A DNA stretch of 64,000 nt, from contig OY970173.1 of NCBI GenBank assembly GCA_963707635.1, positions 768,001-832,000 on the forward strand. The letters run 5' to 3'. This document shows positions 4,777-25,283 of this stretch, piece after piece (the first letter of the stretch is position 1; each line of letters opens with the position of its first letter). The stretch comes from Candidatus Latescibacterota bacterium (GTDB lineage Bacteria > Krumholzibacteriota > Krumholzibacteriia > WVZY01 > JAKEHA01). The position numbers and the translations under genes are program-made. Below the pieces are notes generated by a model. It was not told the origin of the DNA and searched no databases. It saw nothing but the letters and a program-made list of their open reading frames with translations.

Positions 4777-6376
4777 ATGCATACCACCGTATTCTCCGGC
4801 GCTATCGTCGGAATCCAAGGCCTCGTCGTCGAAGTCGAAGTGGACATCTCGCGGGGCATTCCCGCGTTCTCGGTAGTGGGATTGCCCAACGCGGCCGTCC
4901 GCGAGAGCCGCGAACGGGTGACCGCCGCCATCAAGAACACGGGCCACCACTTTCCACTAGAACGCATCACCGTCAACCTCGCCCCTGCCGACGTCAAGAA
5001 AGAGGGATCCGCGTACGATCTGGCCATCGCGGTCGGGATCCTGCTGGCGTCGGGGCAGGCGGAAGCGACGACGGAGCGCACGCTGTTCATCGGCGAGCTC
5101 GCGCTGGATGGATCGCTCCGGCGGGTGCCGGGTGTGCTGCCGATCCTCCTCCACGGGCGTGCCGCCGGCTTTCGACGCGCCGTGGTGCCGCTCGCGAACC
5201 TCGATGAAGCCCGCGTCGTCGAAGGTGTCGAAGTGATTGCTTGCGAGAACCTGCGGGTAGCGGTGGCCATGGCGCTGGCCCCCGCACCCGCGTCGGCCGG
5301 ATCCCGCCGCAACCGCGCCGCCGGCGATCCGACGGAGGCGAACTTCGACGCTACCGTCGACGGGCGAGTGATCGTGAAGCGGGCCGACGACCCCGTACCC
5401 ACTCCGCCCGCCCCGAACTCGTTCGCGCTCGACATGGCCGACGTGGTCGGGCAGGAGGCGGCCAAGCGGGCGCTTCTCATTGCCGCGGCCGGCGGCCACC
5501 ACGTGCTCATGACCGGTCCTCCGGGGGCAGGCAAGACCATGCTCGCGCGGCGATTCGCGACCATTCTGCCGCCGCTATCGTCCGCGCGATCGATGGAAAC
5601 CACGATGATCTACTCCATCGTCGGGCTTCTTCCGGGCGGGGGGCTCATGACCCTGGCCCCGTTTCGATCGCCGCACCACAGTGCCAGCGACGCGGGCCTG
5701 ATCGGCGGCGGCGGCGTGCCGCGCCCCGGCGAAGTCACCCTCGCGCACAACGGCATCCTCTTTCTCGACGAGCTGCCCGAGTTTCGCCGGCACGTGCTGG
5801 AGACGTTACGCGAGCCGCTGGAGGAGGGGCAGATCACCATTTCCCGGGCTCGCAGCGCCGTCACATTTCCGGCCCGGTTTCAACTGGTGGCGGCGATGAA
5901 CCCCTGCAACTGTGGCAGCCATGGGAGCAAGGTGAACCAATGCAGCTGTTCTCCCTCGACAAATCGAAGCGTATCTCGCAAAAATATCAGGTCCACTGCT
6001 CGATCGAATCGCGATTCACGTGGCTGTGCAACCCGTTGAGCTCGACGCGTGGGGCTCATCGTCGGTCCGGATGACAAGCGCCGCCATGCGAGAGATTGTC
6101 ATTCACGCACGCGAGATCCAGGCGACGTCGATTCGCAGAAGTGGATGGCACGGACTGTAACGCGAGGCTCCCCGAAGGCATGTTCTCGACTTCTTGTTCG
6201 ATGGAGCCGGCGGCCGAGACGCTGTTTGTGCGCGCACAGAAAGTACTCTGGTGAGCGCACGGTCGCGGGGACACATCATTCGCGTGGCGCGGACGGTCGC
6301 GGATTTGGAAGGGAGCGAACGGATCGGAGAGCGGCACGTCGCGGAAGCAGTGGGGTATCGGAGAAGACGTGCGTGA
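4777..6376 (+). CDS. comM: ComM/YifB Mg-chelatase-like AAA+ ATPase; 3' third has several frameshifts (about 5955, 6125, 6245)
   Basis: VGLPNAAVRESRERV, NLAPADVKKEGSAYDL, Walker A GPPGAGKT, Walker B LFLDELPEF, AAMNPCNCG; tail continues in shifted frames to HVAEAVGYR. Confidence 0.92.
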
Positions 6377-6919
6377 CCAAGAGCTTGCGCCGCGACATCG
6401 CTTTCCGAGACACGCGTCCAAACGGCGGCGGGAAAAAAAGCAATTCGGATCAAGAAAACACTAGACAGTTTAGTCCGTTGTTGGCAAACTGGTAATTAAG
6501 AAGGGCCGCGCGCAGTCGTCGCTACAAGGGGGGATTCGGTTGCTGACCGGAGAGCCGATGGGGTTGTCGCTGGTTCACGGCGTCATTTGCGCCGCGTGAA
6601 CCGATCCTATCTTTCTCTAGACGTTTCTCTATCTCCGATTCGCGCGTCGCCTGCCCGCGATCTCGACTCCTGAACCTACACAAGTCCCTGGTTACCCGTG
6701 GCACATCAGGTCGTCGGGGAGATCACGAAGGGGGATGGGTCAACTAGCCGCGTCTCCGGAAAACCCAGCGCGGACCACACGGGAGGTCAAGGAGTCGATA
6801 ACAAGAGATGTCGTGGATACTTTCCTTGCCTTTTTCGGTCCCGATCTTGCCGATGCAGATGAAGCTGTCACTGCGGATGGATCAAGGTTGAGGAGCAAGT
6901 CAATAGGAGGGGACTGCTG

Positions 6920-7522
6920 ATGGCTACGACCCGACGCCTTCTACCTGCCGCCATGGGGTTTGTGCTGTGTCTGCTGTGGGTAGGAAAGCAACCCTTCGCC
7001 ACAACAATTGAACTGTCCGCTACGAAAGTTTACTACTTCTGTCAGGGGTCAGATGACCCTGGGAAGGTCATTGTCTACGCGCGCATGTCGTTCAATTTGG
7101 GAAGCACGGCCGTGCGGTTCAAGGTCCAGGCGAATCCCGAACTGACGTGGACCTACCTCACCGAAACACCTTTGTTCCCCACATTCGTGGGGAACACACA
7201 GACCGGGATCGAGATCTGTTTTGAACAGTGCAACATGGACGCTCAGGCTCCGCTGGTTAGGATCGAATACATGGCGTACGGCACGAGCGCGATCTGCAGC
7301 GGACGACTGTTCGTCGTTCCGCATCCAAGCGCTGAAACAGTAGACGTGATTAACTGCAACGGCGTGCCGAGCGCAGCGATTACTCTACCGCTTGTGGTGG
7401 GCGGCATATGTGCTTGTCCCTCGGCGCGTAGCTACCCGGGGACGCCTCATGTGTTCGATTGCATGGCTGTGTTGACAAGGACGAGCACGTGGGGTGCAAT
7501 TAAGGCGCTCTACAGCAACTGA
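6920..7522 (+). CDS. Secreted Cys-rich protein with C-terminal STWGAIKALY motif
   Basis: GGAGG RBS, signal peptide, TWGxxKALY tail. Confidence 0.8.
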   Translation: MATTRRLLPAAMGFVLCLLWVGKQPFATTIELSATKVYYFCQGSDDPGKVIVYARMSFNLGSTAVRFKVQANPELTWTYLTETPLFPTFVGNTQTGIEICFEQCNMDAQAPLVRIEYMAYGTSAICSGRLFVVPHPSAETVDVINCNGVPSAAITLPLVVGGICACPSARSYPGTPHVFDCMAVLTRTSTWGAIKALYSN

Positions 7523-7616
7523 CAATTGGAGGGGCTTATTGCTGATCGTCTGATCTGAATGTGTTTTTCAGTGGTCCATTAATGGGGCGGCCGCAACCTT
7601 TGGGGAGGAGAGAAAA

Positions 7617-10600
7617 ATGGAGTTGCGAGTCCGTCTTATTTGGTCACTTGTTTTCGTTTACCTTCTTACCTCGGCGCCGGGTCAGGCAGAGGAGATCGAC
7701 CCGGTCTACTGCGCGCTACTCCCGGATTCCGTCACACTGTCACTTGGTGGCATCGCTGAGTTGGTTCATCCATTCGGGTCGGATACTACAACCTACCCGA
7801 ACGAGTTTGACCCCGACTCAACGAGCCTGTCCAAAGCATTCTCGCAGGTCTTCAGACTTTACTTGACGGACAGCGTGTCGAATCGATGGTCGCGAAGCGA
7901 ATGGGAGGGAATAGTCACCACGATCATGAACAATGACACCACCACGACTGATGATGATGTCTTTGGTCGGGTGTGGGGCTACTTTGTCCGTGATGGGAGG
8001 GACTTGAATCCTTACTACGCGGGCGTGCGGTACACCGCCGTGGAGGAGGGCGACACGTTCACTACCATCGACTTGTACCTGTACGATGCATCGGATATTC
8101 CCTGCCCGTGCACGAGTGAATATGGCCAGACCTGCAACGGGTATTCGCAGTATTTGGGCGACAATAAACTTGTGATCAATGCCAACGATTCCCAGTGTCC
8201 TCCGGACTCAGGATGTGCAAATTGCGCGCCTATTACCCTCGAGGATATGCTGGGCATGGGCATCGCACACGAGCTTCAGCACCTCTGCTTCGCGATCAAC
8301 GATCAAAACGGCTACGCAGGCATTAACGAGACGTTGTCGACGCTCGCTGAGTACTTTATGGACGTTTGGCGTCCGCTTGCTTTTGATATTCCCTATGATG
8401 CGTCTTTCATGGACATCGAGCACTGTGATGTCCCGTCTTGCGAGTTTTGCGGACAGCCGCCGAAATACCAGGTGTACAAGCCGTGGATGATCCACCTCTA
8501 TGAAGTGTTCAAGGGAAACACGGCGGATCCTACGGACGACCTACTATACCGCTGGATTCGCAATGATGATCCTAGCGTTTTTCGACTTTACCTAAGTCAG
8601 CTGGCCGATGTGCTTTGGGACGATGACTTCGATTGGATGGGGGGCGCGGATGCCGTGGACCGTTTTACGAAAGCATACGGGGATTACCTCGTAGCGAAAT
8701 TCTGCAATGCGCCGAGTTTCAGCGCGCACGGTGAGTTTGGACATGGACCCGTTAATACCGTTGAGAAGTTCGGTTACTTCCTGGATAACTGTGACACGGA
8801 GGGGATAGGGGTTCCTGAAGAGCCAGTGGACTGCCCCCCGTACGAAAACTCCAACAACTGGGGTTGCTGGAACGTGCGCGTGCTTGCACCGTCGTACGAA
8901 TTGACTGACGACAACGAGAACGTGCTGGCGAGCGCGTTGGGTGTTTATCAGAACGGCGACGACACGCCTGCCGTCACTGAATGGGATACGTCGAGGGACT
9001 ATATTGATGTGTACGTGTGGGGAACCGATTACATCGTATTTCGCGCTGGCGCGTACTTTGAGGATGGAGGCGAGCATGAACTGCGGATCCGTGTGGGCGG
9101 AACGGACATAGAGCATAACCTGGCGATTCGACCGATTGGTCGAATCATGGCGTACGGAGCTGATCAAGACACACTCCAGATGCACCCGGATGACCTATTG
9201 TTCGTCGAACCGATGACGTTCTCGCCCGCCACGACGTCCGGGGACACGGTGCTTGCCGAAACAGTGACCGTCACGGACTTCGGGCGGTCCGTGAAGGTTG
9301 TTGTGCTCGCCATCGGTGCCGCGGGCACGAGTATCGACAGAGATTACCCGTATAACGGCTTCGTTTATGAGTACGAATATGGCGTTTTCACGCCCGGTCC
9401 ATCAACGCGTACGTGGCAAGGCGATGTCTTCGCGCTGGGCGACGTCACAGTTCTTCCGGGTGGAACGCTAGACGTCGGAGCAGGCACCCGTGTCAAGGTC
9501 TGGCCATTTGATCTTGCGCAGGGAGGCGCAGATGAGGACCGCATCGAGTTGAACGTGGAGGGTCAGCTGGTTGTTGACGGCACCTCAGCAGACCCGATTG
9601 TCTTCGATTCCTGGGACGCCGCAACGACGTGGGATTGGGTTGGCTTCTATTTCGATAGCCAGAGTGCCGGCGGGACCTTTGACCACTGTGTCATTGGCCA
9701 TGCGCTGTACGGCATTGAGTCCTACGCGCCCGTCACGGTAGCGAACACGACCATCGAGTCCTGTATCATCGGCGTGCTCGCTCGCAACGGAGGCAGCGCG
9801 CTGGTGCAGAACTGTACCCTCTCCGACATCGACTATATGGGAATCATAGTCGAGAACAACTCCACGGTCGTTCGCAATAGCACGGTGCAGCGCGTAGGCG
9901 CAAATGCGCTGGATGTCCGGTACCCAGCGGGCGTCGTGGTCCGCAACTCGACGTTCAAGGACTCGGATCAGGGCGTCTACCTGAGGTCCACGGCCTGGGA
10001 GAGCGTGGACATCGATTCCTCGTGCATCTTCTCAAACAACGACATTGGCATTAACGGGTTCGGCACAGGGACGAGCTGCGTCATCAAGAACTCTACCTTC
10101 GATGGAAACACGAGCAACGCCATCCTGTGTGATGGGGGAAGCAGCCCCGTCATTGACGGGAACGGGTTTAACTACAACGCTGTGGCTGTGTACTGCAGGC
10201 AAAGTTCTTCCCCGACAATCACGAATAATTCAATGGTGCACTTCACCGAGGGAGTTGTCGTGACGACGAGCTCTAATCCGGACATCGGCCACTACAGCAG
10301 CACGGGCAACAACCAGATCGCGTATCCCGATGACGAGAATGGAAAGTACGTCCATAATTACACGGCGTCGACGATATACGCGCAGAACAACTGTTGGAAC
10401 GTTGGTCTCTCGCCGTGTGCGCCGGCAGCCAGTTGGTTTTCGGGCTCCGTGGATCGGACACATCCAATCTGTTGCATGGTCGAAGAGCCGCAACAGGGGT
10501 TTCAGATTCCAGCCGAGCCGGGAACCGCGACACCGGTGGTGACCGCCTTGAAGGGAATCGTGCCCAATCCCTTCAATCCCACGACGACAATCCACTATGA

Positions 10601-10814
10601 CCTTGCTACGCAGGCAAAGGTTGACTTGAAAGTGTATGACGTGGCGGGCCGGCTGGTGCGCGCCCTGGTGGGCGAGACGAGGCCGGCCGGCAGTCATCAG
10701 GTGGTGTGGGATGGTCGGGACGGGCGAGGGAACCCGACCGCCAGCGGCGTCTACTTCGTCCGCATGATCGCGGACAGCCAGGTGTTCACCAAGAAGATGG
10801 TTCTGTTGAAGTAG
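7617..10814 (+). CDS. Large secreted protein: putative HExxH zinc peptidase domain, right-handed beta-helix, C-terminal FlgD-Ig/secretion-tail domain
   Basis: Signal peptide; AHELQH...NETLS; beta-helix repeats; PNPFNPTTTIHYDL...KKMVLLK. Confidence 0.85.
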   Translation: MELRVRLIWSLVFVYLLTSAPGQAEEIDPVYCALLPDSVTLSLGGIAELVHPFGSDTTTYPNEFDPDSTSLSKAFSQVFRLYLTDSVSNRWSRSEWEGIVTTIMNNDTTTTDDDVFGRVWGYFVRDGRDLNPYYAGVRYTAVEEGDTFTTIDLYLYDASDIPCPCTSEYGQTCNGYSQYLGDNKLVINANDSQCPPDSGCANCAPITLEDMLGMGIAHELQHLCFAINDQNGYAGINETLSTLAEYFMDVWRPLAFDIPYDASFMDIEHCDVPSCEFCGQPPKYQVYKPWMIHLYEVFKGNTADPTDDLLYRWIRNDDPSVFRLYLSQLADVLWDDDFDWMGGADAVDRFTKAYGDYLVAKFCNAPSFSAHGEFGHGPVNTVEKFGYFLDNCDTEGIGVPEEPVDCPPYENSNNWGCWNVRVLAPSYELTDDNENVLASALGVYQNGDDTPAVTEWDTSRDYIDVYVWGTDYIVFRAGAYFEDGGEHELRIRVGGTDIEHNLAIRPIGRIMAYGADQDTLQMHPDDLLFVEPMTFSPATTSGDTVLAETVTVTDFGRSVKVVVLAIGAAGTSIDRDYPYNGFVYEYEYGVFTPGPSTRTWQGDVFALGDVTVLPGGTLDVGAGTRVKVWPFDLAQGGADEDRIELNVEGQLVVDGTSADPIVFDSWDAATTWDWVGFYFDSQSAGGTFDHCVIGHALYGIESYAPVTVANTTIESCIIGVLARNGGSALVQNCTLSDIDYMGIIVENNSTVVRNSTVQRVGANALDVRYPAGVVVRNSTFKDSDQGVYLRSTAWESVDIDSSCIFSNNDIGINGFGTGTSCVIKNSTFDGNTSNAILCDGGSSPVIDGNGFNYNAVAVYCRQSSSPTITNNSMVHFTEGVVVTTSSNPDIGHYSSTGNNQIAYPDDENGKYVHNYTASTIYAQNNCWNVGLSPCAPAASWFSGSVDRTHPICCMVEEPQQGFQIPAEPGTATPVVTALKGIVPNPFNPTTTIHYDLATQAKVDLKVYDVAGRLVRALVGETRPAGSHQVVWDGRDGRGNPTASGVYFVRMIADSQVFTKKMVLLK

Positions 10815-10828
10815 TGGGAGGGATTCAC

Positions 10829-11401
10829 ATGCGCAAACTCACTGAAGTTGGATCGCTTGTTGTCGTGGCGATTGGGGTTCTTGTTGCACAGGCGCTCGCC
10901 GAGAGCACGATCGTCACAATCCCGATAGGAAACGTCACAGCTCGAGATTCCGCGCGCGGCTCGTTCTATGCCGTCACTCTTGACCTTCCAAAGGAAGTGA
11001 CGACGAACAATCTGGACCGCGTTCAGGTTGAATTCGCCGCCGACGTTGACCGCTCAAGCGCGGGCGAGACGGTGGCAACCGCGATGGTTGGCCTGTTTCC
11101 GCTCACAGAGACCCTCGGCGACGCGCGACTGGGTCTCGCGGCTGCGCAATATGACAGTGCTGCTGCATCGGTTCGGCCTGTGAAGATGGGGCAGAATCGG
11201 CTGGTGAAACTGGACGTTACGGAGACCGTCAGGGGCTGGCTGGCCGAGCCATCCAGCAATCACGGCATTGTCATCGGCACTCTGACGGGTCCAGCGGTGG
11301 GCACCGTGTCGCTGCGTGATTCATCACTTGCTCCGAGCACCGCCTTGCGAGTGACGTATTACTACAAGACGCGTTTCGGCGGGCGCGTCTCAGGCAAGTA
11401 G
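10829..11401 (+). CDS. Secreted hypothetical protein (DNRLRE-like DVTxxVxxW motif)
   Basis: GGAGG RBS, signal peptide, LDVTETVRGWL...NHGIVI. Confidence 0.7.
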   Translation: MRKLTEVGSLVVVAIGVLVAQALAESTIVTIPIGNVTARDSARGSFYAVTLDLPKEVTTNNLDRVQVEFAADVDRSSAGETVATAMVGLFPLTETLGDARLGLAAAQYDSAAASVRPVKMGQNRLVKLDVTETVRGWLAEPSSNHGIVIGTLTGPAVGTVSLRDSSLAPSTALRVTYYYKTRFGGRVSGK

Positions 11402-11729
11402 GCAGCGGGTCGGCAATCGACACGCTCGATATGAGCGGGCGGGGCCCTCGACCATATCGAGAGGGAGCTGCCACGGCTCCAGGGCGAGGCCGACTTCATG
11501 CGCATCCAGTCCGGGACCCGGGAGGCCGTTCTTGGCGGGGCGAGGGATCGCTTCTCCCATTAGCCCGATCTTGTGCCCGTGGGCGAAGCGGGAATCGTTT
11601 AGGCCATCGTGGTTATCGGCAAGAATGATGTTGTGATAGATCTGTGCTATTCCCCGGCGCTTCCGGAAGTTCGGTCCCGCTGATCAGAGGCCGGTTCGTT
11701 GCCCTGGAGGTATAAGCTCCCAAAGGAGT

Positions 11730-11819
11730 AAGTGATTGAATTGAAAAGGCTAAAGGCCGTCCCCGCTGCCCCTTCCTCTCCCTCCTCTAAAGAAGCAGCA
11801 AAATGGCAACGAACCCCTG
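11730..11819 (+). repeat. comM-array att arm 1
   Basis: AAGTGATTGAATTGAAAAGGCTA ... CTCTAAAGAAGCAGCAAAATGGCAACGAACCCCTG. Confidence 0.8.
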
Positions 11820-12285
11820 CAACTGTGGAATGCACGGGAGCACGATCAAGCAGTGCACGTGTTCGCCGCAGCAGATTGAGAAGTATCTTGCGAAAATCTC
11901 GGGGCCGCTTCTCGATCGGATCGCGATCCATGTGAGCGTGCGGCCGGTTGACATCGACGCTTGGAAGTCGCCGTCGAAGGCGTCGCTGACGAGTGCCACG
12001 ATGCGCGAGATGGTCGTGCGAGCACGGGAGATTCAGGCGCGACGCTTCGCCGAAATCGACGGCATCGACTGCAATGCGCGGATTCCGGAAGGAATGTTTG
12101 CATCTGACTGCGCCATGGAACCGAAGGCGGAAGCGCTGTTCGTGCGCGCGCAGAAGTCACTGCTGGTGAGCGCACGGGCGCGCGGTCACATCGTCCGCAT
12201 CGCGCGCACGATTGCGGACTTGGAGAGAAGCGAGCGAATAGCGGAGCGACACGTCGCAGAAGCAGTGGGATATCGGGGGAGGTAA
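11803..12285 (+). pseudogene. comM: comM 3' fragment copy 2 (160-aa intact ORF)
   Basis: MATNPCNCG...ISGPLLDRI...HVAEAVGYRGR, homologous to the comM C-terminus. Confidence 0.9.
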
Positions 12286-12336: not shown

Positions 12337-13653
12337 ATGTTACTTCGCGATGAGCACCAGGTGATTCGCGCCGGTGTTGGCAAGTCTTACGCGTGCTCTC
12401 CGGGGCAGTGTGACTTTGGCGTGCTCCTGCCACCATTCTCGCAGTTCCACTGCGTCCGTCGGCGACTAATAATTCTGGCTTCAGTCATTGTGCTCACCGT
12501 TACTTCGTCGCCAGCAACAAGCGGTCCCCCGGCTCCGATGGACATTCGCGTGCCCCTCGGGGGCATCGTCCTCCGTACAGAAACGCGTTGGGTGGCGCCG
12601 TTTGTCGAGTACACGGAGGTTCACGGCAAGAGGTGGGAGAGCCATAAGGTTCGGTGGTTTTCGGACAGTGGCAAGGTCCTGGCCGAGACCGATTCGCTTT
12701 TTTCCAACCGGGGGTTTCCATTTTGTGGCTATTTCGTCTCAGGTCCATGGAGTGGCCTGGCGTTCCACGGCATGTACAATGACTGGGAGCTGTCTGCCCC
12801 AGGTGCTGATAACGACGGTGAAGCCTCCCGGGACGGGCGGGTCTTTCTCATATGGGTACGCGGCGGCCCGACCGGTCAGGCCATCGGTGCAAACGTATAT
12901 GCGGCAGGCAAGCACGGTGCAAAACTCGGACCTTTTGCCGGCAAGACGCTTACGACGGCGCAGCTGGGGGACGACGGCAGTGTGGCGGCGCTCTTCTCGA
13001 CAGCCGCGAGCCCGGAGCGAGGGCGAGTGCTGGTCACGAACGCGAATGCGCGGATCACCATGACGTTGTCCACGACGGGAACGGAATCCGCATACGCAGC
13101 TCCCGACGGCCGCGGCGTTCTGCTAGGGCAGACGGACGGAACGATGTTCTACGTGGCGGCGGATGATAGTGCCAGACGGATTCAGATGGACCGCGAACTG
13201 CCGCCACATGCCCAGGCGATGCAGTGGGCTCCGGGGTCGGCACTTGTGTTCCTCGCCGGCTCAAAGACACGCCAACTCATACTCCTCGACTGTGATCGCG
13301 GTCGCGTGGTGTGGCGGGCGCCGAGCCTCGGGACCTACCACGTGGTGGCGTTCGATCGCTATGTGTTCGAGACCGGGCTCGCGCCTGCGTTGGGCGACTC
13401 AACATTGAGCGTCCGCGCGATCAATGTGCTCGACATCAAGACCGGCAATCTGGTCGCAACGTGGCGCTCGACCCCGCCTGCGCGCTACACGTTCAGGGAT
13501 ATCGGAAGGCTCATGGTGCGCGATCATCACCTCTACTATGTGACCGACGAGATCTTCGGCGAGATTCGACCCGAACAGGTGGTCGAAGGCGAGTCGTGCT
13601 GCACCGGGTGGGAGAGAGTGCCCGGCCTTCACCCTTCTCTCCGGAAGAAGTGA
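12337..13653 (+). CDS. Secreted hypothetical beta-rich (propeller-like) protein; start uncertain
   Basis: Long ORF; signal-peptide-like RRRLIILASVIVLTV inside the N-terminus. Confidence 0.65.
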   Translation: MLLRDEHQVIRAGVGKSYACSPGQCDFGVLLPPFSQFHCVRRRLIILASVIVLTVTSSPATSGPPAPMDIRVPLGGIVLRTETRWVAPFVEYTEVHGKRWESHKVRWFSDSGKVLAETDSLFSNRGFPFCGYFVSGPWSGLAFHGMYNDWELSAPGADNDGEASRDGRVFLIWVRGGPTGQAIGANVYAAGKHGAKLGPFAGKTLTTAQLGDDGSVAALFSTAASPERGRVLVTNANARITMTLSTTGTESAYAAPDGRGVLLGQTDGTMFYVAADDSARRIQMDRELPPHAQAMQWAPGSALVFLAGSKTRQLILLDCDRGRVVWRAPSLGTYHVVAFDRYVFETGLAPALGDSTLSVRAINVLDIKTGNLVATWRSTPPARYTFRDIGRLMVRDHHLYYVTDEIFGEIRPEQVVEGESCCTGWERVPGLHPSLRKK

Positions 13654-13698
13654 CCTAGACGCTAGGGTTTCGGGGGGTGGCTAGACGTCCGGGGGAGT

Positions 13699-13789
13699 AA
13701 GCCACTGATGATGAAGAAGATGAAGCTCGCCTTCACCCGCCACGCCTCCCTCTCCCCTAAAGAAGTGGCAAAAGGGCAACGAACCCCTG
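13699..13789 (+). repeat. comM-array att arm 2
   Basis: AAGCCACTGATGATGAAGAAGATGA ... CCCCTAAAGAAGTGGCAAAAGGGCAACGAACCCCTG. Confidence 0.8.
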
Positions 13790-14255
13790 TTTGTGCGGGT
13801 TCCATGGGTCGACAGTTCGGCAATGTCGTTGCTCACCGCTTCAGATCGAAAACTATCTCGGGAAGATCTCAGGGCCGTTGCTGGATCGGATCGCGATTCA
13901 CGTCGCTGTCCGGCCAGTCGACATCGACGCGTGGAAGTCGCCGTCGTCGTCGGCAATGACGAGTGCAGCGATGCGCGAGATGGTCGCGCGAGCGCGGGAG
14001 ATTCAGACACGGCGCTTCGCCGAAACAAACGGCGTCGACTGCAACGCGCGCATCCCGGAAGGCTTGTTCGCGTCACTCTGCGCGATGGAGCCGAAGGCGG
14101 AGGCGCTGTTCGCGCGGGCGCAGAAGTCGTTGCTGGTTTCCGTGCGGGCGCGCGGCCACATCGTCCGCGTCGCGCGAACAATTGCGGACTTGGAAGGCAG
14201 CGAGCGGATCGCCGAGCGTCACGTCGCGGAGGCCGTGGGGTATCGTGGGAGGTGA
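13773..14255 (+). pseudogene. comM: comM 3' fragment copy 3 (ATG mutated to AGG)
   Basis: ATNPCLCGFHGS...ISGPLLDRI...HVAEAVGYRGR. Confidence 0.9.
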
Positions 14256-16171: not shown

Positions 16172-16848
16172 GCAAACGCATCGCATCGATGGCGCGTGTC
16201 CTTCTTCTCGCGACCATGTCACTCGCCCCCAGGCTTACCTGGGCGCAGATCATCGCGCCGCCGCTCGAACACCGGGCGCTCGAGGCCGGGTATACGTACA
16301 AGTGGTTCCACCGCGTCATCGAGTCGGGGAGCAACGAGATCAAGTGGCAGGCGGGATCGTTGTACGCCCGCTATGGTGGTTTTCAGCGCCTCACGGTGTA
16401 CGCCGAGGGCGGAATCTGGGACGTCGATTCCTACTCGCGGTGGGTGGTCGGCGGAGGTCTGACGGGTTTGCTCTACACGCGGGGCTGGTGGTCGCTGGAT
16501 GTGGACGCGAGCTACAACGAGATCTACGACCTGGACGAAACCACGGCACGCACGGACCATCGAACCTACGGCTGGAACGCCGCGCTTGTGGCGCGCGGGT
16601 CATTTGCCGTGAGCGGGCAGCGCGTGGACCTCTACGCTGGTCCCGCGTACGTTAACGATGTGGCGGAGACATACCCGTTCAGCAGCAACGATCCGGTCCG
16701 GACCGAACCCGATCAGCACTGGGGGGCATGCGCGGGTCTCTATGCTACTGCTCTAGACTATGTGAGCGGCTTTGCATATTTACTCTACCTGGACCAACCG
16801 CAGCTTCGCCTGGGAGTGTCACTACGTTCGCGCGGGGAGACTCCATGA
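16168..16848 (+). CDS. Putative outer-membrane beta-barrel protein
   Basis: Signal peptide; alternating beta strands; GTGA overlap with upstream gene. Confidence 0.7.
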   Translation: MSKRIASMARVLLLATMSLAPRLTWAQIIAPPLEHRALEAGYTYKWFHRVIESGSNEIKWQAGSLYARYGGFQRLTVYAEGGIWDVDSYSRWVVGGGLTGLLYTRGWWSLDVDASYNEIYDLDETTARTDHRTYGWNAALVARGSFAVSGQRVDLYAGPAYVNDVAETYPFSSNDPVRTEPDQHWGACAGLYATALDYVSGFAYLLYLDQPQLRLGVSLRSRGETP

Positions 16849-17516
16849 TGCACCGTGGTCTGGTGTCGACACTCGTGCTCGCAACCATCCTCGCCGACGG
16901 AAACGCCGTGCGGGCGCAGGTGACCGGCGGCATTCTGCCAGGGGGCACCTGCGAAGCCGGGCTGATGTACCACGACATCAACCGGGCCATCGAGTTCCAA
17001 AACGTGATGAAGGACGTCACGTACAGCACCTCGACGATCGTGTTTCGCTTCGGGATCACGGACGCGGCGACAGTGTCCATGGAACTCGGTGGTGGGATGG
17101 GCAGCGTCGACATAGACGACTTCAGTTACGTGGTGGGCGGGTCGGTGCAGACGCGGATGTGGTCCCGCGAACCAACCCGGGTGACCACCACGATCGCTTT
17201 CACTCGCATCCTTTCCCTGTACCGCGAGACCGGGTCGCCGGGTGGGCAGCTCACGCAGAGCGCGGATTGGAACGTACTGCTGGAGCGGGACGTTCGCCTC
17301 CGCGAACAGGCCGTGACGGTCTGGGGTGGTCCCGCGGTCTCCTTCCTGACGGCCACGCCGCAAGCACCGAATGTCGAGAACACCTGGGAGTCGAGTCAGG
17401 TCCTCGGAGGAATGGTGGGCATACGCGTGCTGGTTGCGAAGCACGTCTCGCTGTCCGGGCAGGCGTTGTGGATTAGTGCATTCGAGCCCGGCGTGGCTCT
17501 GGCCTACCGTTTTTGA
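16845..17516 (+). CDS. Putative outer-membrane beta-barrel protein
   Basis: Signal peptide; C-terminal AYRF (Bam-signal-like); ATGA overlap. Confidence 0.75.
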   Translation: MMHRGLVSTLVLATILADGNAVRAQVTGGILPGGTCEAGLMYHDINRAIEFQNVMKDVTYSTSTIVFRFGITDAATVSMELGGGMGSVDIDDFSYVVGGSVQTRMWSREPTRVTTTIAFTRILSLYRETGSPGGQLTQSADWNVLLERDVRLREQAVTVWGGPAVSFLTATPQAPNVENTWESSQVLGGMVGIRVLVAKHVSLSGQALWISAFEPGVALAYRF

Positions 17517-17572
17517 GAAGCGTGGCATGCTATTGACCTCGATGGCGAGTTGACGCCCAGGGATGCGGTTGG

Positions 17573-17995
17573 ATGAGACGATCACTCGCCCTCGCCACTA
17601 TGGCCGCACTGATGGCCTGCTCGCAACGCGGCGCTCGCGAGCAGAGCTCGGTGCCGGCGACGAGTACGGGTTTTGTCGACAAGGTTTGGACCGTCGTCGA
17701 CCCCGCGGGCGGTCCGGGTGATCTCTATGTCTTCCTCTCCGACGGCACCTTCGTCAAGACGGCGAAGGAAGCGGTGCCCACCGTCGGAAAGTGGAGTTGG
17801 GATGGGAAGCACCTCACAGTCATCGAAACTGCCCTTCCTTACCAGGCGGATATCGATTCTCTTACCAGTGCGTACCTTGGAATCACCATTCATTTCATGG
17901 AGCGGGAATACCATGTGGGACTGGTTCCGGCCACCGGGACCGAAAGAAGTGACCCAAAAGCAGTTCTTTTCATGTCGCTTCGCAACGGGGAATAG
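17573..17995 (+). CDS. Small lipoprotein
   Basis: Lipobox LMAC. Confidence 0.7.
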   Translation: MRRSLALATMAALMACSQRGAREQSSVPATSTGFVDKVWTVVDPAGGPGDLYVFLSDGTFVKTAKEAVPTVGKWSWDGKHLTVIETALPYQADIDSLTSAYLGITIHFMEREYHVGLVPATGTERSDPKAVLFMSLRNGE

Positions 17996-18022
17996 AACAA
18001 ACTAGCTGTATCACACGCGAGC

Positions 18023-18529
18023 ATGTCCATTCTGTTTACAGTATTTATTGCGGTCGGGTTGCTTCTCGGCTGGAGTCGCGATCTTTCGTTGCAGGTTTTT
18101 GCCCGACAGTTCCTGGTTTGGAGTTGCGTCCTGACCAGTCTGGTCTTTGGTCTTTTCGCCGAATTTTTGGTTGCGCATTGGAGGTTCGACGGACCCCGTA
18201 AGCGTCGATGGAGGAGCTTGCTCGGGCACATTGTGACCAACTGGCTGTTAGCTCTCGGCGTGAGTGCACTTGCACTGGCCACGCTAGCCATGCCGGTATT
18301 CGACTCGATGCGTGTTGTTGGACTCCTTGTATCGGTGATCGTGCTTGAGTTCGTGGTGGTCTGTTCAGTCGCGTCAGTCATCAATGCTCGAAGGCAGGGT
18401 CAGCCCAGGACTCGAGCCGCGTTTCTCCGGGGCTTTGGGAACTACGCTCTGCTGAACACTGTTTCCATGGTGGGCGGCGTAGCTGCTGGTCGGCTGTATT
18501 TGAACCTGTTCTATCCGGGGGTCGGCTAG
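18023..18529 (+). CDS. Membrane protein (about 5 TM)
   Basis: Hydrophobic 168-aa ORF, lower GC. Confidence 0.6.
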   Translation: MSILFTVFIAVGLLLGWSRDLSLQVFARQFLVWSCVLTSLVFGLFAEFLVAHWRFDGPRKRRWRSLLGHIVTNWLLALGVSALALATLAMPVFDSMRVVGLLVSVIVLEFVVVCSVASVINARRQGQPRTRAAFLRGFGNYALLNTVSMVGGVAAGRLYLNLFYPGVG

Positions 18530-18661
18530 GGGGCGAGGGTCCGGCTAACTAGCCGTTCTGCCGACGGACCGGCGAGAGCGTAGCTAGAGTGAGTTTGGCC
18601 AAAGCCCTCGGCATAGGGACTTTCGCCGCGCTCAAGCCGTGTCCGACAGCCTCCCGAAAGG

Positions 18662-18749
18662 AAGCGATTGATGGCAAAGAAGATGAACGCAGCCCCGACA
18701 CGCCCTCCCCTCTCCCCTAAATCAGTGGCAAAATGGCAACGAACCCCTG
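18662..18749 (+). repeat. comM-array att arm 3
   Basis: AAGCGATTGATGGCAAAGAAGATGA ... CCCCTAAATCAGTGGCAAAATGGCAACGAACCCCTG. Confidence 0.8.
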
Positions 18750-19215
18750 CAACTGTGGAATGCACGGGAGCACGATCAAGCAGTGCACGTGTTCGCCGCA
18801 GCAGATTGAGAAGTATCTTGCGAAAATCTCGGGGCCGCTTCTCGATCGGATCGCGATCCATGTGAGCGTGCGGCCGGTTGACATCGACGCTTGGAAGTCG
18901 CCGTCGAAGGCGTCGCTGACGAGTGCCACGATGCGCGAGATGGTCGTGCGAGCACGGGAGATTCAGGCGCGACGCTTCGCCGAAATCGACGGCATCGACT
19001 GCAATGCGCGGATTCCGGAAGGAATGTTTGCATCTGACTGCGCCATGGAACCGAAGGCGGAAGCGCTGTTCGTGCGCGCGCAGAAGTCACTGCTGGTGAG
19101 CGCACGGGCGCGCGGACACATCGTGCGCGTTGCGCGAACGATCGCGGACCTCGAGGGAAGCGAGCGAATAGCGGAGCGGCATGTGGCAGAGGCGGTGGGG
19201 TATCGGGGACGATAG
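18733..19215 (+). pseudogene. comM: comM 3' fragment copy 4 (160-aa intact ORF)
   Basis: Near-identical to copy 2. Confidence 0.9.
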
Positions 19216-19309: not shown

Positions 19310-20791
19310 CTATTCCGCGGGAAGGGTGAGGACCGGCAGGTTCACGATTCCTGCTTCTTCGATGCGATCGGCCATAAGCCGATACTCGCGTGCCTGCTCG
19401 TCGAGGTTCTCCGACGCAACGCCGGTGCTTCTGGCGATTCTGCTCCGATCGAATCCGCGGCCGGTCAGGTAAGACGCTTCAAGACCGAACTCGATGAGCT
19501 TGCAGAACGATCTCCCTTCTTGATCGTCGAGGAGGCCCGATGTGTTCGAATCCGCAAAGGGCCGAAGTTGTTTGGCAATTCGCGCTACCTCACCGGAGTC
19601 TGGGGCGGCCGGCAATGCCGAACGACGAGCAGCAAGCATCGCTGCACGATCGACTTTCCACTGCCCGTACTGATCGGCCTGCATCTTTTCTTTCCAGTAT
19701 TTCTCAAGATTAGTACGTTCATAGAGCACGTTCACGGAAGGGTTTCTCAAGAATTGCTCTTCCTTAGGAATGAGCACGTCAAGCTTCTTGCCGACAAGGA
19801 GTTCGTTGCAGAAGCGAGACAGGCCTTCGCTATCCGAGGTTACCATGCGTGCCTCCAGGCCACCGGCAAATACAAAAACGACCTCGTCGCCTGCCGCATA
19901 CGAGTTCTGGAGTGCCTGAGGACTTTGAAAGAACGGTTCGACTTCTTGATACTGCTTGCGACGCTCAGCGTTGCGAGCGTCTAACTGCCGCAATTCGACG
20001 GCCGACTTTGCCATATGAAAGCCTGCGAAGAGAATGGGAATGGCCGAGACGGCTACGGCAGCGACCCCGAGTGTTCGGTGAGGTCGACTCTTGAGAAGGC
20101 GTAGGCCTTGCGCAAGGCCCGCGATCGCTAGGAGCACGAGCAGTCCCATCCCGGCGACCATCACGAAAGCGGCCAGGATACCTTCAAGCCCCAAATTGGC
20201 GCTTCTGCACCACGCAAGAAAAGCAAGAAGGAGCGCCGCAACGACCACCTCGGCAACCACGATGCACCCCGTTATGACGGGGTTTGGGCTCGAGTTTGCT
20301 ACTCTACTCACACGTGGGCTGCTGGTCGCGGGTACGCGACGCGGGCTCCTTGTCAACAGAAGCCCCACGACACACACGCCCGCGCCGAACCACGCGATCA
20401 TGACATCCAAGCCGGCGGATACCGAGGCTGTCATACCCTGCCCCATGAGTTCTCGCTGGGTGAGCCCCGAGGACATGAGGGAAGATGGGACTCTATGCTT
20501 ATAGATCGAGCAGGAAACAATCGTCACTAACCATTCAATCGCCCCAAGTCTACAGCCGTTGAAAACCAATCGTCGCCAGGAAACTGCATCGCGAAGCACC
20601 CACCAGGCGCCAATGGGGCCACCGACAAACAAGAGGACAACATTGACGGGCATCTGAACCGACATCCGGCCGTCGACACTCCCGAACAACTTACCTACAA
20701 TGCCGATGACGATGTAGGCAGAGAATAGACCAATCGCAATGGCGGCGAGTTTCTTCACAGGGCAACTCCTGATTATCAGGGTGAGTACCAA
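19310..20791 (-). CDS. Multi-pass membrane protein with soluble C-terminal domain
   Basis: 493-aa ORF, about 7 TM in the N-terminal half. Confidence 0.65.
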   Translation of the reverse strand: MVLTLIIRSCPVKKLAAIAIGLFSAYIVIGIVGKLFGSVDGRMSVQMPVNVVLLFVGGPIGAWWVLRDAVSWRRLVFNGCRLGAIEWLVTIVSCSIYKHRVPSSLMSSGLTQRELMGQGMTASVSAGLDVMIAWFGAGVCVVGLLLTRSPRRVPATSSPRVSRVANSSPNPVITGCIVVAEVVVAALLLAFLAWCRSANLGLEGILAAFVMVAGMGLLVLLAIAGLAQGLRLLKSRPHRTLGVAAVAVSAIPILFAGFHMAKSAVELRQLDARNAERRKQYQEVEPFFQSPQALQNSYAAGDEVVFVFAGGLEARMVTSDSEGLSRFCNELLVGKKLDVLIPKEEQFLRNPSVNVLYERTNLEKYWKEKMQADQYGQWKVDRAAMLAARRSALPAAPDSGEVARIAKQLRPFADSNTSGLLDDQEGRSFCKLIEFGLEASYLTGRGFDRSRIARSTGVASENLDEQAREYRLMADRIEEAGIVNLPVLTLPAE

Positions 20792-20849
20792 GAACCGAGC
20801 AAGAAGTCTGCCGCTTCGACGCGGGCGGGACCGCGGCTTTCATGAAGGA

Positions 20850-20937
20850 AAGTGATGGCCTATCAACAGGTTAACATCGCGTACCCACGGGGCGACACCT
20901 TTCCCTAAAGAAACAGCAAAATGGCAACGAACCCATG
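20850..20937 (+). repeat. comM-array att arm 4
   Basis: AAGTGATGGCCTATCAACAGGTTA ... CCCTAAAGAAACAGCAAAATGGCAACGAACCCATG. Confidence 0.8.
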
Positions 20938-21409
20938 TTTGTGTGGGTTCCATGGGTCGATGTTGCGGCAATGTCGTTGCTCGCCGCTTCAGATAGAGAA
21001 CTATCTCGGGAAGATCTCGGGGCCGCTATTGGATCGGATCGCGATTCATGTGGCGGTGAGACCGGTGGATGTCGAGGCGTGGTCTGGCTCGAGCGACACG
21101 ACGCGTCTCACGAGCGCCGCGATGCGGGAGATGGTGGCGCGGGCGCGAGAGATTCAGGCGCGACGCTTCGCCGACACGAACGGTGTCGATTGCAATGCGC
21201 GCATCACGGAAGGAATGTTCGCCACCTTCTGCGCGATGGAGCCGTCGGCGGAAACGTTGTTTGTGCGTGCGCAGAAGTCGCTCCTCGTGAGCGCGCGGGC
21301 GAGAGGTCACATCGTCCGGGTCGCGCGCACGATTGCGGACTTGGAGAGAAGCGAGCGAATAGCCGAGCGACACATCGCGGAGGCGGTTGGGTATCGTGGA
21401 AGGGCGTAA
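20921..21409 (+). pseudogene. comM: comM 3' fragment copy 5 (162-aa intact ORF)
   Basis: MATNPCLCG...HIAEAVGYRGRA. Confidence 0.9.
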
Positions 21410-21485: not shown

Positions 21486-23882
21486 CTACTTAAGCAACAG
21501 CATTTTCCGCGACAACGTTGTCTTGCCTGTACTCAGTCGGTAGAAATAGATGCCAGATGCAACGGGCCTTCCCGAATCATTCTGGCCATCCCAGATCGCC
21601 TCATGCGTGCCGGCTTGAGTCATTCGATTCACGAGTGTCCGCACCAGCGATCCGTCAGTAGAATAAACACGAAGTTTGACCAACGATGCTGCGGGCACAA
21701 TGTACCGGATACTCGTGAGGGGATTGAATGGATTTGGACGGTTCTGCAGCAGTTCCGCTGCGAGCGGTGGCATCGATACTTCAACCGGGACCGACAAGGA
21801 GGAACCGGAGTCGATCAGTGCTTCCAGGGTGTAAGTGTACGTGAAGCCAGGTCTCGCAGTCTCGTCAATGTAACTTCTCGCTTGCGGATCAAGGAGGTTC
21901 GGTTCGAACTCCAGGCCTTCAGATTGCAGGCGATGCACCCTGAACCCATTCACACGCTCATCCGCCTGCACTGACCACGTCAGCCGGACGCCGGTTGACG
22001 TCGCGCGCGCATCGAAAGAGGTGATCAAAACGGCGACGGGGTACTCCGGTTCGCGGCGCAGAATCGCGCCACCACTTCCAACCATTGTTCCGGCATCAGC
22101 GCCGGTCATGCAGATGCCGAAAATGTCGCCAAGATAGCTCCCCGCCATGCCGCTGCGTTGCCATTTCCAGGTCAGGCCGCCGTCGGTCGTAAACCTCACG
22201 TCGCCCCATTCGCCCACTGCGGTGCCGTTCAATAAGTCGCCGAACCAGACGTCGTTGAGGTTCCGATGGGTTCCGGTTTGGACACGCGTCCACGTATTGC
22301 ACCCATCCGTCGTGCGAACAATGGTTCCGTTGTCGCCGACGACCACGCCCGTATTCGCATCGAGGAAGAAAACCGCGTTGTACGACTGACGCCATGGAAT
22401 GAGTGACTGGACCCAGGTCGCCCCTCCGTCGGTCGTTCGTATCAGGTTTTGAATCCATCCAACAACAATGGCAACTCCGTCCACGGCACAGACATCGGTG
22501 TAAAGGGAGAGCGGCGTATTTGTCTGCGGCGTCCAGGTTACGCCTCCATCGGATGTCTTGTAGACTTCGTTCCAACCAGCGATGTACCCGGTCTGTGCGT
22601 CATCGAACGACACGGAATAGAGGGGAGATGTCGTGTCGCGGGTCCGACGCGTCCAGGTGTTACCGCCGTCGTTCGTGCGAATAATGTAGCCGTCGTCTCC
22701 GACGGCGTGACCATGATCGGGATCCGTAAAGTGGACGCCACGCAGCCTCGAGGCAATGCCGCTCGTCTGCGGCGTCCATGACACGCCGCCATCCTCGGTG
22801 CGATAGATAGCGCCGTTGTCGCCAACAACAGTTCCCTGCAGACCGTCCAGAAAATGGACCCCATGGATGCCGCTATATGTGAAGCTCCTGGACATCTGCT
22901 CCCAGCTTGCACCGTCATCTACGGAACGAAGGATGATCCCGTTGTCACCCACGGCCAGCGACACCGAGCCGTTCGACGCGATGCCGTGCAGGGCGCGTTC
23001 GGTATTGCTGATGCTGGTGATCCAGCTGGTGCCGCCGTTCGAGGTACGAATGATCCGCCCGCCGTAGCCGACGGCGATGGCGCGGGTGGAATCGATTTGG
23101 ACTACGGATCCCAGGATCTGTTGGGTCGTTACGGGCTGGGAAGACCATGTCAGCCCGCCGTCGGTCGTGCGCACCACCATTCCTGGCCCCCCGGTTGCCG
23201 TGCCGTTCGCGGCATCGGAGAAGGAAACGGAACGCAGGTCGGTCTGATACGATCCAACGTACTGGTTTGACCACGTCAGCCCACCGTCGGCGGAGAGATA
23301 GACAGCGGCTGTCATGAAGCCCGTATCCCAATCGGTGATGCCGCCGGCGGCGATGATCTGATTGATCCCCAAGACCCAGAAGTCAACGACCGTGAATTCG
23401 GGAGGGAGAACGCGCGTCTGCCACGTTGCGCCTCCATCGTCGGTCCGGATCAGGTTGTTGTAGTAGTCCGACACGAAACCGGTCACGCCATCCAGAAGGA
23501 ACACAGCCTCCAACTGGGTCGGCGCCGGACTTGGCGCGAAGTCCCAATGTGCGCCGCCGTCGAAAGTCCGTAGCACGACATTGCCGCTTCCCACGGCAAG
23601 GCCGATGCTGGTTGTCCCGAAGGAAACGTCGCGAACATACATGGTGGTACGTGTGTCGATATCCGTCCACGTCAGTCCAGCATCGCTGGATCGAATCAGC
23701 GTACCGCCGTCACCGACAACGATTACAGTGTGGTTGTCCAGAAACGTGGCGGCTCGCAGGGTACTTCCGGTGGGTTGGGGATTCTGCCAGCCCCAGGGGG
23801 GCTCAGCGGCATGAAGCGGAAAAGAGACAAACGATGCGATACAGAGGGTGAGACTCAAAGCGGGCAATGAAAAGCATCGCAT
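21486..23882 (-). CDS. Secreted YCF48/BNR (Asp-box) repeat protein with FlgD-Ig/secretion tail
   Basis: Many RTxDGGxTW repeats; PNPFNPLTSI...RKMLLLK. Confidence 0.88.
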   Translation of the reverse strand: MRCFSLPALSLTLCIASFVSFPLHAAEPPWGWQNPQPTGSTLRAATFLDNHTVIVVGDGGTLIRSSDAGLTWTDIDTRTTMYVRDVSFGTTSIGLAVGSGNVVLRTFDGGAHWDFAPSPAPTQLEAVFLLDGVTGFVSDYYNNLIRTDDGGATWQTRVLPPEFTVVDFWVLGINQIIAAGGITDWDTGFMTAAVYLSADGGLTWSNQYVGSYQTDLRSVSFSDAANGTATGGPGMVVRTTDGGLTWSSQPVTTQQILGSVVQIDSTRAIAVGYGGRIIRTSNGGTSWITSISNTERALHGIASNGSVSLAVGDNGIILRSVDDGASWEQMSRSFTYSGIHGVHFLDGLQGTVVGDNGAIYRTEDGGVSWTPQTSGIASRLRGVHFTDPDHGHAVGDDGYIIRTNDGGNTWTRRTRDTTSPLYSVSFDDAQTGYIAGWNEVYKTSDGGVTWTPQTNTPLSLYTDVCAVDGVAIVVGWIQNLIRTTDGGATWVQSLIPWRQSYNAVFFLDANTGVVVGDNGTIVRTTDGCNTWTRVQTGTHRNLNDVWFGDLLNGTAVGEWGDVRFTTDGGLTWKWQRSGMAGSYLGDIFGICMTGADAGTMVGSGGAILRREPEYPVAVLITSFDARATSTGVRLTWSVQADERVNGFRVHRLQSEGLEFEPNLLDPQARSYIDETARPGFTYTYTLEALIDSGSSLSVPVEVSMPPLAAELLQNRPNPFNPLTSIRYIVPAASLVKLRVYSTDGSLVRTLVNRMTQAGTHEAIWDGQNDSGRPVASGIYFYRLSTGKTTLSRKMLLLK

Positions 23883-23980
23883 CGAAGCGGCCCCATCTGC
23901 GGCTTAATGCAGCGAAATTGTACCACTCCAAGAGGGAACCTGCAACCTTCCGATTCTATCCCGCGCCTGAACCGTTTGTG

Positions 23981-24068
23981 AAGGGATTGGAAATGAAGAA
24001 GCTAGGGGGCAACCTGCCCCGCCCGACAATCTCCCCTAAAGAAGCAGCAAAATGGCAACGAACCCCTG
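23981..24068 (+). repeat. comM-array att arm 5
   Basis: AAGGGATTGGAAATGAAGAAGCTA ... CCCCTAAAGAAGCAGCAAAATGGCAACGAACCCCTG. Confidence 0.8.
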
Positions 24069-24546
24069 TTTGTGCGGATTCCATGGGTCGACGATTCGGC
24101 AGTGCCGTTGCTCGCCGCTTCAGATTGAGAACTACTTGGGGAAGATCTCGGGGCCGTTGCTGGATCGGATTGCGATTCACGTGAGCGTGCGGCCGGTGGA
24201 CGTGGAAGCGTGGTCGGGTGTCGATGGTGTGACGCGCATGACGAGTGCCGCGATGCGGGAGATGGTGGCGCGTGCGCGCGAGATTCAAACGCAGCGCTTC
24301 GCCGACACGAACGGCGTCGACTGCAACGCGCGCATTCCCGAAGGAATGTTTGCAGCGCACTGCGCAATGGAAGCTACCGCTGAGGCGTTGTTCGTGCGGG
24401 CGCAGAAATCGCTCCTTGTGAGTGCGCGGGCGCGCGGTCACATCGTGCGAGTCGCACGGACGATTGCAGACCTCGAGGGAACGGAGAAGATTGCGGAGCG
24501 TCACATCGCGGAGGCGATCGGGTATCGGGGGAGGGATTCACGGTAG
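24052..24546 (+). pseudogene. comM: comM 3' fragment copy 6 (164-aa intact ORF)
   Basis: MATNPCLCG...HIAEAIGYRGRDSR. Confidence 0.9.
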
Positions 24547-24591
24547 TGATCGAGCTTTCTGTCGCCGCCGCGGTCGTTCCGGGCGGTTGAC

Positions 24592-25073
24592 GTGCATCTT
24601 CCTCAAGCCTTCAACTACGCGCGGGGCAACCTCAGCTTCACCATCAACGGAAGGGAGCACTCACCATGTGGGCTCAAGCAACCCAGAAAGCACATGGATT
24701 GCGTCGTATCGGGTGCCATCGTCCTGACCCTTGGGGAGGCCTATGGCTTCCGGAGGCCCATGCGAACCCCGGCACAACGCTCGATCCGCAGAACCCGAAC
24801 GCGACGTTCACGCAGGAAGGCAGTCAAACGTTCACACTGGGGCCGGTGTTGTTGCTCACAGACCAGTCGTTGTCCGACTTCGTCGCGTTCTTCGCGCCCG
24901 ATGCGGATGCGGCTCCGGGCACGTTCTCGTCGGTCGAGTTTGGTTGCCGCAGCGTCGAGGCGCAGTCCAGCGTGGAGTACGCAGCCTTCCGTTCGAGCCT
25001 CGTCGCACCGCTGGCGGTAGAGACGACAACATGGGGTCGAATGAAAGCATTGTATAGAACGGACCGACCGTGA
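24592..25073 (+). pseudogene. 5'-truncated, frameshifted secreted protein ending TTWGRMKALY
   Basis: Two frames join near 24750; TWGxxKALY tail; no signal peptide visible. Confidence 0.6.
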
Positions 25074-25139
25074 CGGAATCTGGAGGACATCATTTGTCGG
25101 TACGGGTTGCGACGGCGTAAGCATCGGCGGGCGTTACCG

Positions 25140-25283
25140 GATGCGGTTCACGTCGCGGTGCGACCTGTGGATGTGGAGGCGTGGGCGGGTACCGACGGTG
25201 CGGCGCGAATGACGAGTGCCGTGATGCGCGAGATGGTCGTGCGGGCACAGAAGACGTTGCTCGTGAGCGCACGGGCGCGTGGC
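25140..25283 (+). pseudogene. comM: comM 3' remnant with internal deletion
   Basis: HVAVRPVDVEAW...MTSAVMREMVVRA|QKTLLVSARARG; about 43 codons missing between the two VRA repeats. Confidence 0.8.

Follow-up and report, generated by a model that had tools for sequence, protein, structure and literature searches.

Stacked comM 3' ends and att arms at the target site of a large serine recombinase family in a Candidatus Latescibacterota genome

Large serine recombinases (LSRs) are described as integrating into the Mg-chelatase-like gene comM/yifB. This gene is the target of 12.4% of the predicted site-specific LSRs in a survey, according to its accessible text (PMC10083194), and also the target of the LSR sr1WO of phage WO in the accessible part of another report (PMC9203015) and of the LSR of alphaproteobacterial pipolins in a partly accessible account. 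In this study, a 64,000-nt stretch of the genome of a Candidatus Latescibacterota bacterium (contig OY970173.1, positions 768,001 to 832,000; hereafter the window) is analysed, in which comM is followed by a stack of displaced comM 3' ends, cargo genes and short att arms. The stack is real and is less exotic than a preliminary description of this DNA proposed. It probably represents, although our confidence is modest, a stack of attR junctions of comM-targeting LSRs, in which recombinase-free units have been brought in and left by visiting helper elements (tandem accretion of cis-mobilisable units).

The locus shares with the LSR elements described at comM/yifB the target gene and the enzyme class, the att sequences being no part of this likeness. 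The accessible text of those reports (PMC10083194, PMC9203015) describes disruption of the gene by single elements, and no stacks of displaced ends with recombinase-free cargo; the att tables of the former may bear on whether the exact site used here is already listed. A literature search, made mostly outside subscription journals, yields no description of stacked displaced comM ends. Cis-mobilisable elements (CIMEs) of the ICESt1/ICESt3 type, as the accessible part of their description presents them (PMC5704250), are likewise tandem recombinase-less units at one att site that move with an autonomous neighbour, which is presumed here. Like them, the units in the window contain no integration or transfer genes and are flanked by att sequences in tandem. 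However, CIMEs are decayed elements that retain attL and attR, whereas a unit in the window lacks its own attL and attR pair and consists of host DNA (160 comM codons and the DNA that follows them) and one arm, and the enzyme here is a gene-splitting serine integrase. The DsiB islands at ssrA of Dehalococcoides are also tandem islands with the end of a serine recombinase gene overlapping att, and the integration module is absent in 15 of 31 of them, according to the accessible text (PMC3146451). In those islands an RNA-gene-end repeat of ~20 bp is restored by insertion, whereas the end in the window is a coding end of 470 bp, which the helper disrupts. The staphylococcal cassette chromosomes (SCC/SCCmec) at rlmH, with CcrAB or CcrC, resemble the stack in having a serine recombinase, a conserved gene as platform and tandem recombinase-free cassettes, but have short gene-end att repeats and single cassettes shown to excise, as far as the accessible text describes (PMC11470126). 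The LSR family found here scores 136 bits against the Ccr model (cut-off 900), its target is comM, not rlmH, and PADLOC gives no match in 14 cargo proteins. Integrons are similar in that an ordered array of small variable gene units grows at one site. In contrast to integrons, the stack has no resident integrase and no attI or attC at its borders, its att arm is double-stranded and each unit has one ragged end; no IntI gene lies beside the insertion site, the genome having only XerC, XerD and a distant IntI tail, and the borders are LSR arms.

The crossover is located at the dinucleotide TG of the comM N-P-C codons (5905-5906). This is the site used by an LSR family, and the identity of metagenome units changes at the same TG. 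The preliminary description had proposed site-specific insertion at one comM codon, which holds, and had placed the crossover at the start of a conserved core, from where the LSR junctions and the identity switch move it to the end of that core. The five complete copies of the comM 3' third that it listed at 11803, 13773, 18733, 20921 and 24052 are recovered by repeat search and alignment, with start-to-start spacings of 1970, 4960, 2188 and 3131 nt, and the deleted remnant at 25140 is present at 25140-25283. The Mg_chelatase and Mg_chelatase_C families of Pfam are detected in the three displaced copies scanned. The array does not end at 25283 as had been assumed, because arms are found at 32899 and 35750 by a genome-wide scan and a comM tail is found near 44939 by BLAST; the traces are more decayed toward the distal end. 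The GC content of the region is 56-63%, as compared with 66% for the genome. All five copies are preceded by a common arm with the terminal sequence GGCAACGAACCC(C/A)TG. The arm pattern has five matches in the genome, every one of them inside the array, and its reversed control has none. The units have the proposed composition of comM 3' end, cargo and arm, with no working recombinase in any of them. They have one precise end and one ragged (left) end, which does not fit the earlier reading as integron-like cassettes, and no shared motif is apparent by eye at the left breakpoints of the arms.

From TG onward, the identity among the displaced copies is 75-80% (96% for copies 1 and 3), and their identity to the native end is 64-73%. 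The frames of all five are open, with a ratio of nonsynonymous to synonymous substitution rates (dN/dS) of 0.06-0.21, and four of the five arms provide an ATG ahead of the 160-aa comM fragment. These ratios show past service as working comM ends and make no statement on present selection. The copies are not a collapsed or expanded repeat, because they are only 64-96% identical. The gene called a full comM in the preliminary description has single-base indels near 5957, 6125 and 6247 as assembled, and its open reading frame (ORF) stops at 6039 (420 aa). A background error does not explain these frameshifts, because only 2 splits occur per 37 backbone genes (11,372 codons), and they may represent either local mis-polishing or true decay. 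The unexplained indels of the native end and the lack of any read bridging two units would be expected if the array were a misassembly or an ordinary tandem duplication. However, copies that differ by 4-36% and retain low dN/dS values are not, and the same arm-comM junction recurs elsewhere: 5 of 16 further genomes of the genus have it, as do 20 metagenome loci, with several arm-comM copies per contig in G013, L066, L072 and L073. We regard this explanation as extremely improbable.

The arm pattern is absent from 191 other genomes of the class, and the controls give no match in the genomes with a match. A shorter arm pattern detects 18 loci in a genome collection, 4 with the arm type of the window (Latescibacteria, Krumholzibacteriia and an uncultured bacterium) and 14 in other phyla. 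In these phyla the arm sequence forms the beginning of an XRE-type helix-turn-helix (HTH) gene that is read from the opposite strand, and all 9 cases tested match Pfam HTH_3.

The arms are assigned to an LSR by a gene remnant. In a genome-wide search with a profile of the LSR C-terminus, the top match (37 bits; next, 11 bits) is located at 11453-11683, directly before arm 1. It is a pseudogene contiguous with arm 1 in the same frame and strand; read with X at its stops, it is identical to the intact LSR P0123 at 54 of 78 residues (69%) and has the same natural stop. Because the pseudogene runs into arm 1 and matches an intact LSR, the arms are element ends and the junctions are attR. The preliminary description named Tn7-like and tyrosine-recombinase elements as known insertions at comM; the evidence here points to neither of these but to an LSR, the broken end of which lies inside the window. 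The earlier statement that no cargo gene encodes a recombinase or transposase is correct for the cargo proteins scanned with Pfam and leaves out this decayed end at 11447-11683. The search proposed there for a tyrosine or serine recombinase beside the arm finds the pseudogene, and no complete LSR or resolvase gene in the genome (no PF07508 or PF00239 match; 96% complete, one contig). The HTH end of an element is not found in the window, so there is no attL, and neither an intact LSR nor attL of an autonomous LSR element is present. A tyrosine recombinase as driver was dropped in view of the LSR junctions and the remnant, the genome containing only XerC, XerD and the IntI tail of this class. 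Rolling-circle insertion of the IS91 type at GAAC, which we took to be a lead for the array, was dropped as well, the switch being located at TG. AbaR/Tn6022-type Tn7-like elements carry tns/tni genes and terminal inverted repeats and generate a 5-bp target duplication. No tns/tni-type Pfam match is found in the scanned cargo, to which that search was confined rather than to the genome, and no inverted repeat is found at the unit ends.

Intact members of the LSR family are examined at other loci. The 3' end of the LSR at L098 overlaps the same comM site. At 8 of 15 LSR-family loci the recombinase faces the comM 5' part, and at one it reads into a comM 3' end; the other 6 are located elsewhere. 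The LSR of G005 has no adjoining comM. When the reading beyond the C-terminus is followed for 120 LSR homologues, 48 continue into the reverse of the comM 5' part, 4 into the comM 3' end and 4 into an HTH domain, 50 stop at the junction, 8 show other readings and 6 are not anchorable. The elements have inverted-repeat ends and normal attL/attR pairs. Those of G451 and G215 are integrated in the ordinary way: comM is interrupted, and no spare end comes with the element. The orientation seen in the window is the flipped one of G747 and G008, in which the comM 5' part is followed by the HTH end and the LSR end precedes the comM 3' end. Both of these junctions are present in G747, where an intact LSR reads into that 3' end; in G008, from the same genus, the comM 5' part is joined to the HTH end at TG. 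The arm is an imperfect inverted repeat of the HTH-side end of G008. Nine relatives in the genus have an assembled comM junction; a comM 3' end follows in eight of them and the HTH end in G008. The polarity flip of these elements is plausible, because attP and attB can be aligned in either orientation, according to the accessible text of PMC3783163.

Several other arrangements of these parts are observed. At L098:9563-16690, inverted att junctions enclose an LSR, cargo and a comM 3' end, so that inversion of this segment could switch comM on and off. The same genome has three comM 5' parts, of which two are joined to LSRs. At L077:1065-1096, an arm meets, at TG, a comM-like left half-site in reverse orientation, behind which comM is absent; this junction is likely a product of antiparallel recombination. 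Most arms (11684-11817, 13694-13787, 18651-18747 and 23981-24066) contain a stop-free frame of ~25 codons with an ATG, TTG or GTG start that spans TG. It is the frame continued by the HTH domain in the excised state of LSR-HTH fusions (P0056, P0073, P0079 and P0089), and may supply the start of the HTH gene.

The strongest result is obtained with units shared among metagenome contigs. L065, L069 and L072 contain a common cargo gene and arm that are 96-100% identical over 500-600 nt. When their comM ends are compared in 50-nt segments, the likeness is only 68-92%, with the first differences 2-11 nt past TG, and no LSR is found in these contigs. L068 and L073 behave in the same way. Because nearly identical cargo and arm precede three different comM ends and the switch occurs at TG, these sequences show that recombinase-free arms have been joined site-specifically to different comM ends. 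The same switch is predicted by the circles of comM end, cargo and arm that were originally proposed, if single units excise in this form and an LSR that acts in trans, its directionality being relaxed, inserts them at an intact comM. The narrow arm length and the identity of the last 30 nt of the arms agree with such circles, the latter in spite of silent sites between the copies near saturation (synonymous divergence 0.8-1.1), and staphylococcal Ccr enzymes excise tandem recombinase-free cassettes singly, as the accessible text of PMC11470126 states. However, the circles would require attR to recombine with attB, or with a second attR in parallel alignment. Canonical serine integrases disfavour such reactions according to the accessible text of PMC3783163, whereas Ccr enzymes come close to them. 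The present LSR family has inverted repeats at its element ends and normal attL/attR pairs, and scores far below the Ccr cut-off. In addition, no circle is seen in read runs X1 and X2, which hold 6-7% of the words. Free circles remain the main rival, and we consider them unlikely. Equally doubtful is the broader proposal that the stack is a serine-recombinase counterpart of the integron, in which lone cassettes of a spare comM end and an arm of ~100 bp move by a non-canonical attR x attB reaction in many phyla. If it were true, the anti-competence integrase of a parasite would have been turned into a gene-capture platform that also preserves a whole comM.

Units also seem to have moved between lineages. 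The block of copy 4 and cargo 4 is 87.6% identical over 3023 nt to a block of G012, where it lies directly behind the native comM; the distal cargo is 81-94%, the backbone 68-77% and the comM 5' part 76% identical. Because the block is more similar than the backbone and the comM 5' part, its sequence points to a probable horizontal transfer. Units turn over between genomes, as in G012 and in the TG switches of the metagenome contigs, which agrees with the comparison of relatives that had been proposed as a check. The copies are mosaic. Copies 1 and 3 are identical over 372 nt and then differ at 19 positions, with copy 2 between them, and the identity of the G012 native end to copy 4 climbs from 68% to 93% along its length. 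These patterns show that the copies are reshuffled by homologous recombination. The chronological order originally read from the array is therefore retained in so far as the distal end is more decayed, and is not in so far as copies 1 and 3 share their identical stretch across copy 2. At G013:C12:127345-135323, comM ends 1 and 3 are 96% identical around a differing end 2, an X-Y-X order like that of copies 1-3, with the differences evenly spread.

The spare ends were formerly regarded as replacements borne by the element. They are host comM ends instead, as judged from their position in the tree, inside the genus clade and intermixed with native ends, and from the helper elements of G008, G747, G451 and G215, which disrupt comM. 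Displaced copies in other phyla also resemble the comM end of the genome in which they lie: across five such genomes, the identity is 88-98% for 6 of 7 copies. The comM 5' and 3' trees (FastTree; 31 and 10 rows, partial copies excluded, no clade test) suggest incongruence. If complete elements with their own spare comM end and LSR had stacked in tandem and lost the LSR afterwards, unit 0 could be such a gene-restoring island with a broken LSR. However, an intact comM ahead of the LSR is found at none of the nine comM-adjacent loci among the 15 examined, and the spare ends track the host lineage, not the element lineage. This origin is very improbable.

A further possibility is that the stack consists of scars left by recurrent insertions into comM that were repaired through natural transformation, the units being spread by homologous recombination only and never moved by the recombinase. 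The ragged left ends, the LSR fragment at the first junction, the mosaic copies, the similarity of displaced copies to resident ends in other phyla and the presence of the natural-transformation genes comEC and dprA all agree with it. In contrast, nearly identical recombinase-free cargo and arm joined at the exact TG to three different ends are hard to obtain by independent repairs, and a block has moved between lineages that are only ~76% identical. Scars of this kind alone are a quite unlikely explanation.

In the accretion model, which we favour, a helper LSR element would first integrate at an intact comM (attP x attB). It would then excise through a more distal attR and carry with it at least one unit of host comM end, the DNA behind it and an arm. 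In a new host, the helper with its units would integrate and the helper would exit through the nearest attR, so that comM would be whole with the incoming end, the old end would be displaced downstream and units would be added proximally. All that this model needs is attP x attB and attL x attR reactions, which are canonical. The layout of G215, in which an LSR element in comM is followed by two arm-comM junctions and a third arm, has the sequence order of a predicted accretion intermediate. The weakest step is the birth of a unit, in which a split comM would be repaired with a fresh 3' end and neighbouring DNA while the element body is lost. This step fits unit 0, as well as the presence of comEC and dprA; ~370 nt of the recombinase end remain in unit 0, and 20-100 nt are alignable in the other units.

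Several observations weigh against the accretion model. The arms alignable to arm 1 are 86-102 nt long in 17 of 27 cases (20-65 nt in the other 10), and so narrow a range is hard to obtain from random decay. LSR coding sequence is retained in only 1 of 34 arm-upstream regions. A search of this genome and of 16 further members of the genus detects no intact LSR of the comM-targeting family; the comM 5' part is not assembled in 4 of these 16. No excisionase or transfer system is identified. Viral contigs, phages and plasmids do not show the family at comM. Searches with the arm pattern, copy 5, P0032 and P0123 give no match in viral contigs, alignment A2 detects two viral loci, neither of them at comM, and plasmids and phages give no match. 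Since the assembled comM is frameshifted, restoration of a whole comM is not demonstrated in this window. In runs X1 and X2, no junction is bridged and neither a circle nor an empty site is seen; the read contigs match short pieces of units 0-2 exactly, one X1 contig matching 11843-12229 without differences, and do not cover the comM indels.

The disruption of comM by mobile elements is read as suppression of natural transformation in the accessible text of PMC11472951 and PMC12378983. The stacks record the opposite side, namely that comM has been split and made whole many times and that host DNA behind comM has become mobile cargo. LSRs of the P0122-P0126 type, attB and several natural attR variants provide a testable system, which poses the question of whether a directional integrase builds gene arrays by accretion or a non-canonical reaction is involved. 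The short arm is a marker of gene-flux hotspots in uncultured lineages that are invisible to recombinase-based island finders.

The features of the window are listed in Table 1.

Table 1. Coordinates of comM, att arms, displaced comM ends and cargo in the window
Feature	Position	Strand	Evidence or remark
comM/yifB 5' two thirds, ending in attB left half-site (AMNP codons)	4777..5904	+	TIGR00368 445 bits, above cut-off; Pfam ChlI and Mg_chelatase
Crossover dinucleotide TG of comM att site	5905..5906	+	LSR junctions in L098, L114, L152, G008, G747; unit-identity switch
Current comM 3' third (F0), three single-base indels as assembled	5905..6376	+	64-73% identical to displaced copies
Unit 0 cargo: three ORFs, including 1065-aa beta-helix/FlgD-Ig protein	6920..11401	+	
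Pseudogene of last ~80 codons of comM-targeting LSR; two premature stops, natural stop 11681	11447..11683	+	C-terminal LSR profile; P0123 identity
att arm 1, element end between LSR stop and crossover	11684..11817	+	
Displaced comM 3' copy 1 (attR 1; ATG at 11803); mosaic, first 372 nt as copy 3, later stretch copy-4-like	11818..12285	+	
Unit 1 cargo: 438-aa ORF without Pfam family	12337..13653	+	
att arm 2 and displaced copy 2 (TG at 13788; arm without ATG)	13694..14255	+	
Unit 2 cargo: five ORFs without Pfam family	14378..18529	+	penultimate gene adjoins arm in L077 too
att arm 3 and displaced copy 3 (TG at 18748)	18651..19215	+	
Unit 3 cargo: 493-aa membrane-like ORF	19310..20791	-	
att arm 4 and displaced copy 4 (TG at 20936)	20840..21409	+	
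Unit 4 cargo: YCF48/BNR-repeat, FlgD-Ig protein (Pfam)	21486..23882	-	directly behind native comM in G012
att arm 5 and displaced copy 5 (TG at 24067)	23981..24546	+	
Unit 5 cargo	24666..25073	+	homologue between intact comM and arm in L073
comM 3' remnant, internal deletion, without arm	25140..25283	+	
Decayed arm and few codons of comM 3' end	32873..32945	+	
Decayed arm, degenerate core, without comM sequence	35732..35781	+	
Final codons of comM 3' end, most distal trace	44939..44990	+	

The cargo genes differ from unit to unit. Distal to the remnant, a C-terminal fragment of an integron integrase (the 48-residue IntI tail; TIGR02249 86 bits, cut-off 265) is located at 38182-38427 on the forward strand, ~32 kb from the site. 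Sequences resembling attC are seen by eye near 36292, and a 45-nt repeat is present at 35781 and 38536; pattern scans give no confirmation of attC, as two of them, lacking a positive control, detect no site in the window and Rfam gives no match. A distal island on the reverse strand (25316-29186) encodes an extracytoplasmic function (ECF) sigma factor, a zinc-finger anti-sigma/TPR protein and a CHAT-TPR protease module. At G000:C1:594000-624400, ~150 kb from comM, genes are found that follow the comM array in G012 and G013 and follow an arm in L079. A dispersed repeat of 150-220 nt (73-87% identical) is present at 30266-30487, 31659-31812, 38364-38584 and 46768-46988, and also near the comM arrays of L068, L081, L072, G014, G009 and G012.

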